DNA of 62,810 nt. It comes from an uncultured Ectothiorhodospiraceae bacterium (lineage in GTDB: Bacteria; Pseudomonadota; Gammaproteobacteria; HK1). Of the stretch, positions 27,209 to 31,437 are shown piece by piece. Location: the NCBI GenBank assembly GCA_964605765.1, contig CAZSDY010000001.1, forward strand, positions 1 to 62,810. Reading direction: 5' to 3'. Each line of letters opens with the position of its first letter. Position 1 is the first letter of the stretch. Below the pieces are notes generated by a model. It had not been told where the DNA came from. It saw only the letters and a list, made by a program, of their open reading frames with translations, and made no database searches. The translations under genes and the position numbers were made by a program.

Positions 27209-29263
27209 GTGAAGCGTTCCGCAATCCGTCTCTTGTTGCCAGGCGTCCTGGCACTGCTCGCGGTGCTCGCCTATGTCCCCGGACTCTCCGGCCCTTTCGT
27301 CTTTGATGATTTCCCCAATATCGTCAAGAATCCGTCGGTGATGATGCACAGCCTCGATGCCGCGAGCTTTCGTGACGCGGCATCCTTGCACGGTGAGTCG
27401 TACAAGGGGCGTGGTTTGGCGCGCCTGAGCTTTGCGCTCAATTATTATTTCGCGGGTCGAGGTTTCAGTCACCGCGCCTTCAAGACGACGAACCTCGTCA
27501 TTCATCTGATCAACGCAGCCCTGGTCTACGTGTTGGCCGGATTGTTGCTGAGGTCGCTCCCGCGGAGGGCCGAAGGCGCGTGCCGGGCGCCGGCGTGGCT
27601 GCCGCTCCTGGTGGCGGGCCTGTGGGCGTTGCACCCCTTGCAGCTTACCAGCGTGCTGTACGTGGTGCAGCGCATGACCAGTCTGGCGGGCGGTTTCGTG
27701 CTGCTCGGGCTGGCGACCTTCGTGCTCGGGCGCAGACGCTTCGAGCGCGGCCAACGATGGGGTCCCAGTTGCATGCTGGCGGGCGTGGTGGGCGGCACGG
27801 CCCTGGGCTTTCTGTGCAAGGAAAATGCGGTGCTGCTGGCGTATTTCGCGGCGCTCATCGAATGGTTCTTCTTCGATCGCGCGGGCCTGAAGGGCTCGCG
27901 GATTCGATGGCTGGCGGGATTCTACATGCTGGCGGTGCTCGTCCCGACGCTGGTGGGGGTGGTGTTCTTGGCCAGTCACCCGGGATTCATACTCGACAGC
28001 TATATGAGTCGCGATTACACGCTCGGCAAGCGCTTGCTGAGCGAATCCCGGGTGATGTTTTTCTATCTTTCGTTATGGATTTACCCGAATTTACGGCGCT
28101 TCGGCTTGTTTCACGACGATATCGCGTTGAGCACGGGGCTGCTCGAGCCGTGGACGACGGCGCTTGCGTTGCTGGGTTGGGGCGTGATCCTGGGGGCGGC
28201 GCTCGGGTGGGGCGTTCGGCGGCGCTCGGTATGGGCGTTCGGGGTGTTGTGGTTCGTGGTGGGGCACGCGCTGGAATCCACGCTGATCGGCCTCGAGCTG
28301 GTGTTCGAGCACCGTAACTATATGCCGAGCGTGGGACTCGCAATCGCCAGCGCTTACTACCTGATGCGCTTGTTCCAGCATGGCGAAGGGCTGCGTCGCT
28401 TGGCCCCGATGGTGGTGATCGTGGTGCTCGGCGTGCTGGGCTTCACGACCCACGTGCGGGCCGGCATCTGGGCCGATTTGACGACCCTGACGAGCTTCAT
28501 GGCGCGTAATCACCCCGATTCGGGACGCAGCGTGGGCGTGGCGGCGTTCGCGGAATTGACTCGGGGCAAGGTTGATGTGCGGGAGACATACAAGGATTAT
28601 CGGCGCGCCGCGGCGGCCGATCCGAGCGCCGTCGTGCCGCTGATTCGTATGGCGGAAATCGTCTCGGGCCTGCGTGCCTTGGCCCATCGCGCACCGCCGG
28701 GGCATGCCACCGCAACGCCGCCCGCGAACGCATTGGAGGCGGATGTGCTGGTCGAATCCGGCTATCTGGACCGATTGTTGCAGGAAATCGATAAAGCGAT
28801 CCGGCATCGGTTACGCGAATTTGCCGTCAGGGCGGAGACCACGGTCGCCTTGATTAACGTAGGCAAATGCATCGATGCAGGTGGCCGGGCCTGCGTGCAA
28901 CTCGCGCCATTGCTGGTTGAGTGGGCCACCGTCGCCAGCGCGAATCCACGCATCAAGACGATCGAGCGGATCGGGCTGACCTTCGAGCTTGCCGGGCTGC
29001 ACGCAGGGCTCGGGCACGACGCCGACGCCGTGCGCTATGCCAGGTTGGGCCGTGCCCTGCGTCCGGACGAAGCAGCACTGTGGCTCAAGGAGGCGGAGAT
29101 CTATATTCGTCTGCGCCGCTGGCGGGACGTGGACACCTTGCTCGAACGGATGGATAAGGCACTTCCCGCGAGCCCCTTACGCGAGCGTATCAGGCGCGCG
29201 GCTCATGCGGCGCGTCTCGGGGCCGTCGAAATCTCCCCTGACAAGGCCGGCGCGGCGGGCTAG
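27209..29263 (+). CDS. TMTC/PMT-like GT-C-fold membrane glycosyltransferase candidate with a C-terminal helical-repeat domain (paralog 1)
   Basis: 684 aa. First-loop motif PGLSGPFVFDD, FLCKENA (DUF1736-like), RRFGLFHDD and FEHRNYMPS. About 11 TM helices, then roughly 230 aa of helical domain. GTG start. Confidence 0.65.
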   Translation: MKRSAIRLLLPGVLALLAVLAYVPGLSGPFVFDDFPNIVKNPSVMMHSLDAASFRDAASLHGESYKGRGLARLSFALNYYFAGRGFSHRAFKTTNLVIHLINAALVYVLAGLLLRSLPRRAEGACRAPAWLPLLVAGLWALHPLQLTSVLYVVQRMTSLAGGFVLLGLATFVLGRRRFERGQRWGPSCMLAGVVGGTALGFLCKENAVLLAYFAALIEWFFFDRAGLKGSRIRWLAGFYMLAVLVPTLVGVVFLASHPGFILDSYMSRDYTLGKRLLSESRVMFFYLSLWIYPNLRRFGLFHDDIALSTGLLEPWTTALALLGWGVILGAALGWGVRRRSVWAFGVLWFVVGHALESTLIGLELVFEHRNYMPSVGLAIASAYYLMRLFQHGEGLRRLAPMVVIVVLGVLGFTTHVRAGIWADLTTLTSFMARNHPDSGRSVGVAAFAELTRGKVDVRETYKDYRRAAAADPSAVVPLIRMAEIVSGLRALAHRAPPGHATATPPANALEADVLVESGYLDRLLQEIDKAIRHRLREFAVRAETTVALINVGKCIDAGGRACVQLAPLLVEWATVASANPRIKTIERIGLTFELAGLHAGLGHDADAVRYARLGRALRPDEAALWLKEAEIYIRLRRWRDVDTLLERMDKALPASPLRERIRRAAHAARLGAVEISPDKAGAAG

Positions 29264-29316
29264 ATGTTGACCGCCAACCACACGCGAGCAACCGGCACGC
29301 GTAGCCAGGGGCGCCG

Positions 29317-31437
29317 ATGAGCGTCGTTTCCGGACGCGCGGCGCTGGCGAATGCGATCGGTGTCGCGAGGCGGCGGTGGCGATCGCTCGGATTGCTGGGA
29401 CTTCTGCTGGCGACCGGCGCTGTCTACCTGCCCGGGCTGTCCGGACCCTTCCTCCTCGACGACATCCCGAACATCAGCGCGAACCGCGCGCTACGCATCG
29501 AGACGCTCGATGGGCCGGCGCTGTGGAAGTCCGCCTTTTATCACGACGCCAAGTATCCCGCCCGCGGCCTGGCGCGGATGAGTTTCGCGCTCAATTACCA
29601 TTTCTCCGGGGGACGGATCGATGCGCGGGCATTCAAGGCAACCAATCTAGGTGTCCACCTGCTCAACGGTGTCCTCGTCTATCTGCTCGTCGCGCTCCTG
29701 GCGAGACGCCGCGCCGAGGCATTCACAGGCGCTCGGCACGCATCGAGCAGCGCCGCGGGACCGCAGCGCCTGGCCTTGCTGGTGGCTGGCTTGTGGATGC
29801 TGCATCCCTTGCAACTGACCGCGGTGCTCTACGCGGTGCAGCGCATGACGAGCCTTGCCGCGCTGTTTGTGCTCGGCGGCTTGTGGTTGTTCGCGTGGGG
29901 GCGCACGCGGGTCGCGCGCAAGCTCGCCGATGGTTGGTGGTGGATGCTCGCGGGCGTGGGGGCGGGAACGACATTGGGTTTCCTGTGCAAGGAAAACGCG
30001 GCGCTGTTGCCACTCTACGCGCTCCTGGTCGAGATCTTCTTCTTTAGGCGCAACGCACTCGACCCAAGGCGCGCTCGGATGCTGCGGATCTTCTATGGCG
30101 TGACGGTCGGGGTTCCGGCGTTGGTGCTGCTGGGGTATCTGGCGAGTCATCCCGAGTTCATTCTGAGTGACTACCGCTTTCGCTCCTTCACCTTGTGGGA
30201 GCGTGCTCTGAGCGAACCACGGATCCTGTTTTTCTATCTGAGCTTATGGTTTTACCCGACTCCGCGCCGCTTCGGGCTGTTTCACGACGACCTGGCAACC
30301 AGCACCGGTTGGCTCGATCCGTGGACGACGTGCTTGGCCGCCGCGGGTTGGCTGGCGTTGGGCCTGGCGGCGCTCACATGGGGTAAGCGACAGCGCTCGC
30401 CATGGGCCTTCGCCGCACTGTGGTTCTTGATCGGGCACGCCATCGAGTCCACGGTGCTGCCGCTGGAGCTGATATTCGAGCACCGCAATTACGTGCCGAG
30501 CCTGGGGTTGGCCGTGGCCGGCGGCTATTATCTGCTGCGACTTTCGCGCCATGGTGAGGGGTTGCGCCGTGCCGCGCCGATGATATCGCTCCTATTGCTG
30601 GGGGTGTTGGGATTCGCGACCTTCGTACGCGCGGGGGTCTGGTCCGATAGCGTGACACTCGACACCTTCATGGCCCGCAATCATCCCGCGTCGCCACGTG
30701 GTCGAAAAGCGCACGCCGTGGCACTCGAGGCCGGTGGCGCACCGGCATCTTTCGTTTATGCGGCCTTTCGTGATGCGGCGGCGGCACGCGCGGACGAGAT
30801 TTCAGCGCTTATCGCGATGGCGCCACTGACTTTGCGGGCGCTTGCGCAGGCGCGCGCCACGGGCGGCGAGCAAGCGACCGGAGCGCCGGCCCACGTGCCG
30901 CGGCTCTTCGAGGCCGAGCTGGGCAACAGCGTGTCTCATATCGAGGCATTGTGGCGTCAGCTCAATGCCGAGATCGAACGCCGCTTGCGGGTTCAGGCGT
31001 TGTCGGCGCCAACCGTGAATTCCCTCGTGCGGCTTGCGGAATGCATCGTGAACGGCAATCCCGATTGCGCTCGGTTGAGAGCGGCCGTTTTTCGCTGGCA
31101 TCGGCTGGCGATAGGGAGCCGGCGACTCCTGCGCGAGCACGTGGCGGTCCTGGAGATGTCGTTGGCACAGCTCGAAGTCGCCGCGGGAAATCTCCGCGCG
31201 GGGATCGTCCATATGCGACAAGCGACCCTTGCGGCGCCGGGGGATCCGCAGTATCCGATCGCCGAGGCACAACTCTACGCCCGCGAGCGGCGATGGGACA
31301 ATCTGGAGGGATTGCTCGAACGGCTCGAGAGGAGCGCCGCCTTGGGCCGTTCCAAAGCAGAGGTCCTCACGACCGTTCGGCGCCTTTACGCGAATGCCCG
31401 GACCCATACGGGAGGGCTGGGTGACGGCAAGCGGTAA
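29317..31437 (+). CDS. TMTC/PMT-like GT-C-fold membrane glycosyltransferase candidate with a C-terminal helical-repeat domain (paralog 2)
   Basis: 706 aa. PGLSGPFLLDD, FLCKENA, RRFGLFHDD and FEHRNYVPS. Colinear with paralog 1 over the membrane domain; the C-terminal domain is divergent. Confidence 0.65.
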   Translation: MSVVSGRAALANAIGVARRRWRSLGLLGLLLATGAVYLPGLSGPFLLDDIPNISANRALRIETLDGPALWKSAFYHDAKYPARGLARMSFALNYHFSGGRIDARAFKATNLGVHLLNGVLVYLLVALLARRRAEAFTGARHASSSAAGPQRLALLVAGLWMLHPLQLTAVLYAVQRMTSLAALFVLGGLWLFAWGRTRVARKLADGWWWMLAGVGAGTTLGFLCKENAALLPLYALLVEIFFFRRNALDPRRARMLRIFYGVTVGVPALVLLGYLASHPEFILSDYRFRSFTLWERALSEPRILFFYLSLWFYPTPRRFGLFHDDLATSTGWLDPWTTCLAAAGWLALGLAALTWGKRQRSPWAFAALWFLIGHAIESTVLPLELIFEHRNYVPSLGLAVAGGYYLLRLSRHGEGLRRAAPMISLLLLGVLGFATFVRAGVWSDSVTLDTFMARNHPASPRGRKAHAVALEAGGAPASFVYAAFRDAAAARADEISALIAMAPLTLRALAQARATGGEQATGAPAHVPRLFEAELGNSVSHIEALWRQLNAEIERRLRVQALSAPTVNSLVRLAECIVNGNPDCARLRAAVFRWHRLAIGSRRLLREHVAVLEMSLAQLEVAAGNLRAGIVHMRQATLAAPGDPQYPIAEAQLYARERRWDNLEGLLERLERSAALGRSKAEVLTTVRRLYANARTHTGGLGDGKR

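Follow-up and report, generated by a model that had tools for sequence, protein, structure and literature searches.

Glycosylation of pilins has effects on the assembly of pili, on phage resistance and on immune evasion. TfpW, from one Pseudomonas lineage, is the only pilin glycosyltransferase of the GT-C fold that has been studied. Our analysis of a 62,810-nucleotide stretch of DNA from an uncultured Ectothiorhodospiraceae bacterium (contig CAZSDY010000001.1 of assembly GCA_964605765.1; the whole stretch is called "the window") concerns two tandem genes, termed GTC1 and GTC2, that lie immediately downstream of pilA. Comparative analysis suggests that they encode inner-membrane GT-C enzymes with tetratricopeptide repeats (TPRs) that are homologous to the eukaryotic TMTC proteins and most likely O-glycosylate PilA before pilus assembly. 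We assign this reading a probability of roughly two in three.

TfpW of the P. (para)aeruginosa group IV strains Pa5196 and PA7 reportedly has a restricted pilin specificity, and its self-interaction has been reported. The protein has 646 amino acids (aa), 11 transmembrane (TM) helices, a cytoplasmic N-terminus and a C-terminal periplasmic TPR domain; its gene lies immediately downstream of pilA, and it is necessary and sufficient for pilin arabinosylation (10.1101/2020.04.19.049825). The same study describes an essential DDX motif in periplasmic loop 1, a Y-x6-P-F-x7-P motif in loop 4, ArnT as the best modeling template, weak similarity to other GT-C enzymes, and homologues adjoining pilA in Azotobacter, Acinetobacter, Teredinibacter, P. 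indica and Kingella.

The TMTC1-4 proteins (CAZy family GT105) have been defined as GT-C enzymes that combine 11 TM helices with the motifs M1-M7 (Eisenhaber et al. 2021, PMC7801869). They are protein O-mannosyltransferases of the endoplasmic reticulum that modify two distinct β-strands of cadherin EC domains; their variable TPRs are proposed to recruit substrate, and TMTCs also modify protein disulfide isomerases (PDIs), which are non-canonical substrates (PMC11292533). TfpW and TMTC both model best on ArnT. Full-length prokaryotic TMTC homologues with GT-C and TPR domains, such as AMJ42_05695 of Deltaproteobacteria bacterium DG_8, were found by BLAST but given no function, substrate or context (PMC7801869); linkage to pilA and to a family 2 glycosyltransferase (GT2) gene is added here.

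Both pilA-linked pilin glycosylation by a GT-C/TPR enzyme (TfpW) and prokaryotic TMTC homologues are already known. A family-wide cassette of pilA, GT-C/TPR and GT2 genes, with tandem paralogs and homology to TMTC, appears to be undescribed. Our literature search found no paper linking TMTC with pilins, and TfpW was the only pilA-linked GT-C enzyme that it recovered.

Two paralogous genes downstream of pilA

The core of the locus consists of the following features.

26685-27113, forward strand: pilA, encoding a type IVa major prepilin of 142 aa (mature 134 aa from Phe9; Pfam Pilin and N_methyl)
27159-27190, forward strand: hairpin in the gap from pilA to GTC1, resembling an intrinsic terminator, with nine G-C pairs and a trailing T-run
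27209-29263, forward strand: GTC1, 684 aa, with a GT-C domain (27209-28477) and a TPR domain (28478-29260)
27305-27310: GTC1 D33-D34, loop 1
27818-27823: GTC1 K204-E205, loop 3
28064-28120: GTC1 Y286-x6-P293-x8-H302-D303-D304, loop 4
28307-28321: GTC1 E367-H-R-N-Y371, loop 5
about 28868-28894: Cys pair C554/C562 of GTC1 (C576/C584 in GTC2)
29317-31437, forward strand: GTC2, 706 aa, built like its paralog GTC1

A preliminary description of this DNA, made from the letters alone, had proposed two tandem "TMTC/PMT-like" paralogs downstream of pilA as candidate O-glycosyltransferases of the pilin or of periplasmic proteins, and had suggested examining their fold, the conservation of an acidic pair in loop 1, and the frequency of such genes beside pilA elsewhere. 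Both open reading frames (ORFs) are indeed present at these positions on the forward strand, and their products are 48% identical over 640 aa (BLASTP, E 6e-173). The membrane domains share 58.4% identity and the C-terminal TPR domains 28.3%, in keeping with the earlier impression of similar membrane domains and diverged C-termini. The strings PGLSGPF-x2-DD, FLCKENA, RRFGLFHDD and FEHRNY-PS, which had been singled out at that time, all occur in both proteins.

The acidic pair, D33/D34, is invariant among 32 diverse family members. Altogether, 25 polar or charged residues are invariant in the family and sit in periplasmic loops of the membrane domain. GTC1 and GTC2 each keep all 25, and thus both are probably active.

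PilA is 45-63% identical to the pilins encoded upstream of family genes in other loci. Its globular domain is 30% Ser+Thr and 49% Ser+Thr+Ala, matching the Ser/Thr/Ala-rich composition described earlier. Mature position 63 is Ser or Thr in 77% of 62 adjacent pilins, and is T63 in the PilA encoded here. This position is glycosylated in Neisseria PilE (Ser63). The main sites of the Pa5196 pilin, Thr64 and Thr66 (10.1101/2020.04.19.049825), lie beside it. As a lead only, T63 is a possible glycosylation site of PilA.

The 3' end of pilA lies 95 nucleotides (nt) before GTC1. A stem-loop or terminator has been described after pilin genes that have accessory genes (PMC11841053), and the layout of the hairpin at 27159-27190 fits the attenuating terminator of that report. 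The hairpin is probably an attenuator that holds expression of the enzymes far below that of the pilin. No sigma-54 consensus (TGGCAC-N5-TTGCW, at most one mismatch) was found in 26386-26684 upstream of pilA, despite the adjacent pilR and pilS genes.

Homology of the membrane domain to TMTC1-4

Comparisons were made with 12 TMTC N-domain sequences from Additional file 1 of PMC7801869. A family hidden Markov model (HMM), A3, was built on 32 diverse membrane domains of the pilA-linked family. With hmmsearch, A3 matches all 12 TMTC N-domains at E-values of 7e-17 to 9e-30, which depend on the chosen nominal database size of 10^6. Alignment of A3 with TMTC by hhalign (99.7%, E 1.9e-25) extends over 356 columns, from 28 to 408 of the query and from 7 to 402 of the 430 template positions. 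TMTC motifs correspond to GTC1 residues as follows.

M1, DD, loop EL1: D33-D34; kept
M2, SHKSYRP, EL1: R68; only the Arg kept
F-H-x-x-N-x-x-x-H, TM2: F91-K92-N95-H99; kept, with K for H
HP: H142-P143; kept
M3, RxD, EL2: R155, with Thr at the Asp position; only the Arg kept
M4, KE(T/Q)xxT, EL3: K204-E205-N206; KE kept
M5, DW, EL4: H302-D303-D304, about three residues further along; replaced
M6, PxxP, TM9: G352-H353-x-x-E356-S357; replaced
M7, ERxxY-PS, EL5: E367-H-R369-N-Y371-x-P-S-x-G; kept, with the Arg shifted by one

The TMTC residues of M1, M4 and M7, and likewise the Arg residues of M2 and M3, align with invariant or nearly invariant residues of the family. The HMM and hhalign matches, together with the retained motifs, show that the TMTC label is correct at the sequence level; by this comparison, the membrane domain of GTC1 and GTC2 is a true homologue of TMTC1-4. 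The homology covers the whole 11-TM domain, and TMTC1-4 resemble the family in having an extracytoplasmic C-terminal TPR domain and sets of paralogs with variable TPRs. The two differ in loop EL4, which carries Y-x11-P...DW in TMTC and Y-x6-P...HDD in the family.

The Pfam model TMTC_DUF1736 gave no match at E≤0.1 in GTC1 or GTC2, at E≤0.01 in 38 family members, or at E≤10 in the family consensus and nine diverse members. The FLCKENA string had previously been placed in the DUF1736 region. That placement was mistaken, because the string is part of M4 in EL3, whereas DUF1736 corresponds to EL4, between TM7 and TM8 (PMC7801869).

A predicted GT-C fold with a probable periplasmic TPR domain

AlphaFold2 modeled full-length GTC1 with a confidence score (pLDDT) of 89.9, and residues 1-443, the membrane domain, with a pLDDT of 89.0. 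A topology of 11 TM helices with the N-terminus inside and the C-terminus outside fits both the modeled helices and the short, Arg/Lys-rich inside loops. Helix 272-291 of GTC1 is amphipathic, and is equivalent to a non-membrane helix in TMTC loop EL4.

Foldseek searches with the full-length model returned only TPR proteins, and the membrane domain was therefore remodeled alone. Its top 11 matches in the PDB are all GT-C enzymes (STT3/OST, PglB, EmbB, Pmt1-Pmt2 and DPY19), at E-values of 2.7e-3 to 0.27, probabilities of 0.57-1.00 and TM-scores of up to 0.50; matches below these are noise. The GT-C fold anticipated in the preliminary description is thus recovered. Sequence profiles retrieve no GT-C chains from the PDB, so the assignment made through the PDB is at the level of fold only.

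PMT/POMT enzymes (GT39) have a GT-C fold, an acidic pair in loop 1, Ser/Thr acceptors and a polyprenyl-phosphate mannose donor, and they act as paralog heterodimers. Pmt1-Pmt2 (6p25_B) is matched by Foldseek with a probability of 1.00. However, PMTs have a MIR domain where GTC1 and GTC2 have TPRs, and the Pfam models PMT, PMT_2 and MIR have no match in GTC1, GTC2, their homologues or the consensus. Therefore, of the original label "TMTC/PMT-like," the first half holds in sequence and the second in fold only.

The C-terminal domain is classified as TPR both by PDB profile search and by Foldseek, and Pfam TPR models match in 26 of 38 homologues. It forms about 260 aa of helical repeats in the AlphaFold2 model, as the earlier reading of a C-terminal helical-repeat domain would predict. 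Within this poorly conserved domain, a Cys-x7-Cys pair is invariant in 38 of 38 aligned homologues, and may form a periplasmic disulfide or a ligand site. The odd number of TM helices and the invariant Cys pair suggest that the modeled TPR domain is periplasmic. Other than these C-terminal TPR models, no Pfam or NCBIfam family scored above its cut-off in GTC1, GTC2, 38 homologues, the consensus or nine diverse members; a weak match to DUF6056 (E 0.012) was seen in the Pfam search.

PilF structures are among the many TPR proteins matched by this domain, and one relative is annotated "pilus assembly protein PilF." These matches would suit non-catalytic scaffolds or chaperones for pilus biogenesis, comparable to the pilotin PilF or the accessory protein TfpY. 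Yet the 25 invariant residues lie at positions of TMTC ligand-binding motifs and are kept by both paralogs, and this degree of conservation argues for catalysis. We regard the scaffold function as the least probable of the roles considered.

Comparison with TfpW and other pilin glycosyltransferases

Going by its published description only, TfpW shares both its architecture and its position downstream of pilA with GTC1 and GTC2. The latter have 684 and 706 aa, 11 TM helices, an N-terminus inside, a DD pair in loop 1 and a C-terminal TPR domain. The preliminary description had assigned TfpW to a different family. Given the shared architecture and position, this separation is unsupported, and the novelty that it implied was overstated.

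In loop 4, 239 of 245 full-length family members have Y-x6-P-x8-HDD, of which only the Y-x6-P core is common with TfpW. The gene contexts also differ. TfpW is encoded by a single copy with TfpX downstream, whereas the window has two tandem paralogs and no TfpX. The TfpW donor comes from a cluster encoding DPPR synthase, DprE1, DprE2 and a GtrA-like protein, whereas the conserved partner of the present family is a DPM1/AglJ-like GT2. Searches by tblastn, using approximate probe sequences, found no DprE1- or DprE2-like sequences in the window or in 80 related loci. A UbiA-like ORF at 50114-50986 looked like a possible DPPR synthase, but proved to be a heme o synthase that scores above the curated cut-off; it is the only UbiA-family gene in the window. 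No named TfpW was present among the best 120 matches listed in family protein searches, and the 10 isolate-like cluster matches included no Teredinibacter, Pseudomonas or other listed TfpW-homologue accession.

These data bear on whether GTC1 and GTC2 could be true TfpW orthologues that polymerize and transfer D-arabinofuranose from polyprenyl-phosphate arabinose. Such a relationship would explain the architecture, the position and the Y-x6-P core, all known for TfpW from its description, and the D-arabinofuranose genes could sit elsewhere in the genome, as in PA7. However, DprE1 and DprE2 were not detected with these approximate probes in the window or the 80 loci, the sole UbiA-family gene of the window makes heme o, the family lacks the PF-x7-P portion of the TfpW motif, and the partner enzyme is a GT2 synthase of the hexose or N-acetylhexosamine type rather than a synthase dependent on phosphoribosyl pyrophosphate. 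A role as arabinose-transferring TfpW orthologues is thus highly improbable.

Other enzymes that act on pilins are less similar. TfpO/PilO, PglL, PglS and TfpM glycosylate pilins, and tfpO adjoins pilA, but these enzymes are unrelated to GTC1 and GTC2. Those of the TfpO/PglL type transfer preassembled oligosaccharides from undecaprenyl pyrophosphate and are described as unrelated to TfpW (10.1101/2020.04.19.049825; PMC11841053). A cyanobacterial Ogt (GT41) is encoded next to pilA, and was rejected as a relative because it is a soluble enzyme; it has a GT-B fold and an N-terminal TPR domain and uses UDP-N-acetylglucosamine (UDP-GlcNAc).

A conserved association with pilA

The family is very large. 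In an exhaustive search with the membrane domain, 21,054 cluster representatives passed E≤1e-3; of these, 12,839 also passed E≤1e-10 and 4,950 passed E≤1e-30. A word-indexed search with a family query gave 1358 matches. Members are annotated as "TPR repeat protein" or "hypothetical," occasionally as "protein O-mannosyl-transferase," and once as "PilF." No relatives were found in a scan of viral contigs or in a plasmid search.

A scan of one genome per species produced 80 loci from Gamma- and Betaproteobacteria, with 29-48% identity to GTC1. The groups represented include Methylobacter, Cycloclasticus, Dokdonella, Exilibacterium, Undibacterium, Gallionella, Sulfuricella, Aromatoleum and Acidiferrobacterales. 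Pilin adjacency was counted in the 66 loci with at least 900 nt of upstream sequence. An ORF for a PilA-type prepilin lies within 1.5 kb upstream on the same strand in 56 of them (85%), with a median of 586 nt from the pilin motif to the start of the GT-C match. By comparison, the rest of the 1.31 Mb contains eight ORFs with a pilin motif. The proximity to pilA described for this one locus is therefore a property of the family.

It is nevertheless conceivable that GTC1 and GTC2 are general periplasmic O-glycosyltransferases, or act on another surface protein, and that linkage to pilA reflects co-regulation or co-transfer. TMTCs, for instance, modify PDIs as well (PMC11292533), some loci have no adjacent pilin gene, and two Cycloclasticus genes have neighbors that look like minor pilins and not like pilA. 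This explanation is unlikely, given that same-strand adjacency to pilA is found in 85% of loci across two proteobacterial classes and that the separation of pilA from the enzyme genes by a hairpin fits known pilin accessory genes; the restricted pilin specificity reported for TfpW points the same way.

The two Cycloclasticus genes, at 5212-7098 of locus L013 and 10001-11923 of L014, encode GT-C/TPR proteins with no PilA-type pilin before them. ORFs whose N-termini resemble those of minor pilins (170 aa and about 650 aa) are located a few kilobases away, and these enzymes may have a different pilin-like substrate. In seven other loci (L006, L020, L025, L032, L042, L067 and L079), the GT-C gene follows a tandem pair of PilA-type pilin genes.

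Two or three tandem GT-C copies are found in 24 of the 80 loci. Three copies follow one pilA in L007, L008, L044 and L052, and two in L011, L041 and L009 (Acidiferrobacterales/Sulfuricaulis-type). Copies 1, 2 and 3 form separate clades across species, which indicates an old and maintained paralogy. In a rough neighbor-joining tree, GTC2 is a deep sister of GTC1.

The GT2 partner and genes upstream of pilA

Upstream of pilA, the window contains a set of genes that might supply a sugar donor.

22116-23120, forward strand: GT2 glycosyltransferase, DPM1/AglJ/ArnC-like, with hydrophobic C-terminal segments (Pfam Glycos_transf_2, 4.4e-24)
23125-23919, forward strand: orf264, 264 aa, in the low-GC part of the cluster (GC content at third codon positions, GC3, below 0.70)
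23796-24746, forward strand: sulfotransferase-family protein, start codon uncertain (Pfam Sulfotransfer_3, _4 and _1, 2.5e-8 to 1.8e-5)
24753-25667, forward strand: multi-TM LPG_synthase_TM or "flippase-like" protein (PF03706, 2e-29; TIGR00374, 1.5e-11)
25630-26385, forward strand: SAM-dependent methyltransferase, start codon uncertain (Pfam Methyltransf_11, _23 and _25, about 1e-15)

The best NCBIfam matches of the GT2 are AglJ, PpgS, dolichyl-phosphate hexose transferase and ArnC, all under their equivalog cut-offs. By these similarities it is a synthase of the polyprenyl-phosphate sugar type, and we propose that it makes the lipid-linked donor. Its 3' end lies 4.1 kb upstream of GTC1, in agreement with the DPM1/GtrB-like GT2 first noted about 4 kb away. 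Across the related loci, the commonest neighbor, found in 49, is a GT2 of about 293 aa with hydrophobic C-terminal segments, whose gene usually comes right after that of the GT-C enzyme. It shares its best matches with the GT2 in the window (AglJ/DPM1/ArnC-like), and so the suggested link with a DPM1-like enzyme extends well beyond this genome. The TMTC donor is likewise made by a DPM1-type GT2. However, TMTCs use a dolichyl phosphate carrier and cadherin acceptors, whereas the bacterial family would use undecaprenyl phosphate and a pilin.

GT4-type glycosyltransferases (33 loci) and a second GT2 (19 loci) also recur as neighbors, along with epimerases, methyltransferases, DegT aminotransferases and a Wzx-like protein. 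At 1-6 kb downstream, genes for GT4, DegT, UDP-GlcNAc 2-epimerase and Wzx-like MOP-family proteins often follow the cassette (for example, L050 12552-13727, L058 12065-13237, L061 12754-13833 and L037 12834-14135). These genes may mean that the glycans of some lineages are larger or contain amino sugars; alternatively, the cassette may simply have an O-antigen cluster beside it.

The GtrABC and ArnC-ArnEF-ArnT systems follow the same logic as that proposed here: a monosaccharide is attached to polyprenyl phosphate by a GT2, moved across the membrane by a small flippase and transferred in the periplasm by a GT-C enzyme. The window has the GT2 and GT-C members of such a set, and the two are linked in other loci as well. 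We saw no homologue of GtrA or ArnEF; the PF03706 protein, which is not conserved across loci, is the sole flippase candidate. The acceptors of the Gtr and Arn systems are O-antigen or lipid A and not protein, and their GT-C enzymes have no TPRs.

This shared layout of GT2, flippase and GT-C genes, along with the O-antigen-like genes downstream in some loci, would also be expected if GTC1 and GTC2 glycosylated a non-protein acceptor (lipid A or lipopolysaccharide core, O-antigen or exopolysaccharide) in the manner of ArnT or a GtrC-type enzyme. However, such an acceptor leaves the adjacency to pilA unexplained, there is no sequence similarity to ArnT, and a large TPR domain is typical of protein-recognizing transferases such as TMTC, OGT and TfpW. 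We therefore consider a non-protein acceptor quite improbable.

orf264 has no Pfam or NCBIfam match and no homologue across the 80 loci, and the same set contains no homologue of the sulfotransferase and, by tblastn, no counterpart of the PF03706 protein. A multi-TM protein encoded downstream in Exilibacterium was tried as an equivalent of the latter and rejected, as the two share no detectable similarity. The region of these three genes (23125-25667) has a GC content of 0.55-0.60, compared with about 0.65 elsewhere, and a GC3 below 0.70; at the sulfotransferase gene the local GC content is 0.55. Low GC and GC3 and the lack of counterparts in other loci suggest that the three genes probably joined the pilin-glycosylation cluster recently. 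The sulfotransferase is a possible glycan modifier, and its presence hints at a sulfated glycan. Methyltransferases recur close to GT-C genes in other loci, and that at 25630-26385 may also modify the glycan.

Proposed pathway

We propose that the GT2 would load a monosaccharide from a nucleotide sugar onto undecaprenyl phosphate at the cytoplasmic face of the membrane, where the neighboring methyltransferase and sulfotransferase may modify the sugar. The lipid-linked sugar would then be flipped to the periplasmic leaflet, for which the PF03706 protein is the candidate flippase. There, a GT-C active site presumably formed by D33/D34 (loop 1), K204/E205 (loop 3), H302-D303-D304 (loop 4) and E367/R369/Y371 (loop 5) would glycosylate membrane-anchored PilA at Ser/Thr hydroxyls while the TPR domain holds it. 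The homology, fold, conserved residues and synteny are direct results, while the acceptor, donor sugar, flippase and division of labor are what we infer from them. Of the earlier interpretation as pilin glycosyltransferases, the GT-C and TMTC assignments, the DD pair and the linkage to pilA and GT2 stand; the separation from TfpW, a likeness to PMT beyond the fold and the DUF1736 placement are not supported.

Several observations weigh against this pathway. In the family, the M5 (DW) and M6 (PxxP) motifs of TMTC and the Asp of M3 are not literally kept, and none of 245 full-length members has the Y-x6-P-F-x7-P motif of TfpW. Foldseek matches GT-C enzymes at modest E-values, the best being 2.7e-3. 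In sequence searches of the PDB, a single sequence gave no GT-C match, the full-length profile retrieved only TPR proteins, and the membrane profile retrieved nothing at E≤10. Ten of the 66 loci have no recognizable adjacent pilin. O-antigen-like genes (GT4, DegT and Wzx-like) in some loci imply that the donor may vary by lineage. Finally, because PF03706, the sulfotransferase and orf264 are unconserved in other loci, their role in the pathway is a guess.

The conserved catalytic domains suggest that GTC1 and GTC2 probably use the same donor, whereas their diverged TPR domains most likely direct them to different acceptor sites or steps. One possibility is that they are sequential, with one enzyme priming the glycan and the other extending it. 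By analogy with Pmt1-Pmt2, or in line with the self-interaction of TfpW, they might instead form a heterodimer. The two-strand specificity and variable TPRs of TMTC1-4 offer an analogy for a divided specificity of the two paralogs.

More tentatively, and with the odds somewhat against it, the family could represent a very large, uncurated bacterial clade of TMTC enzymes that is dedicated to O-glycosylation of pilins from GT2-made undecaprenyl-phosphate monosaccharides. It would then be the bacterial counterpart of the DPM1-TMTC module for cadherins, with TfpW as one divergent, arabinose-using member and with the tandem TPR domains setting site specificity.

Our data indicate that the cassette of pilA, GT-C/TPR and GT2 genes is widespread in environmental Gamma- and Betaproteobacteria, often with two or three paralogs, and that its enzymes are annotated just as "TPR protein" or "hypothetical." Human TMTC1-4 are linked to disease, and no TMTC chain matched the family profile in our PDB search. 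Homology to TMTC combined with a defined substrate could make these enzymes a tractable bacterial model for TMTC catalysis and for TPR-guided choice of sites. The cassette is also a possible source of new tools for protein glycosylation.

Other genes in the window

31539-34516, reverse strand: pilR (31539-32966) and pilS (32858-34516), two-component pilin regulators, convergent with GTC2

The pilR and pilS genes are 58-69% and 39-55% identical, respectively, to their counterparts before pilA in over 30 related loci. In those loci (L001, L002, L010 and L015 among those compared), the order is sucC on the opposite strand, then pilS, pilR, pilA and the GT-C gene on one strand. Because pilR and pilS are convergent with GTC2 here, the pilA-GTC1-GTC2 block is inverted relative to pilSR. 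The inversion perhaps includes the upstream glycan genes.

When called as longest ORFs, pilS and pilR share 109 nt (32858-32966). Translation of pilR probably starts after the listed GTG, and the receiver domain starts near MNKPRALIVDDE. Farther along, pilB, pilC and pilD were named from reading translations at 39167-43038. The region 46169-53433 encodes a CRP/FNR-family regulator, the heme o synthase, a cytochrome b fused to an Fe-S-like domain, and a protein distantly resembling cytochrome oxidase subunit I (59 bits, far under the cut-off). This is a respiratory cluster, unrelated to the pilin and GT-C genes.

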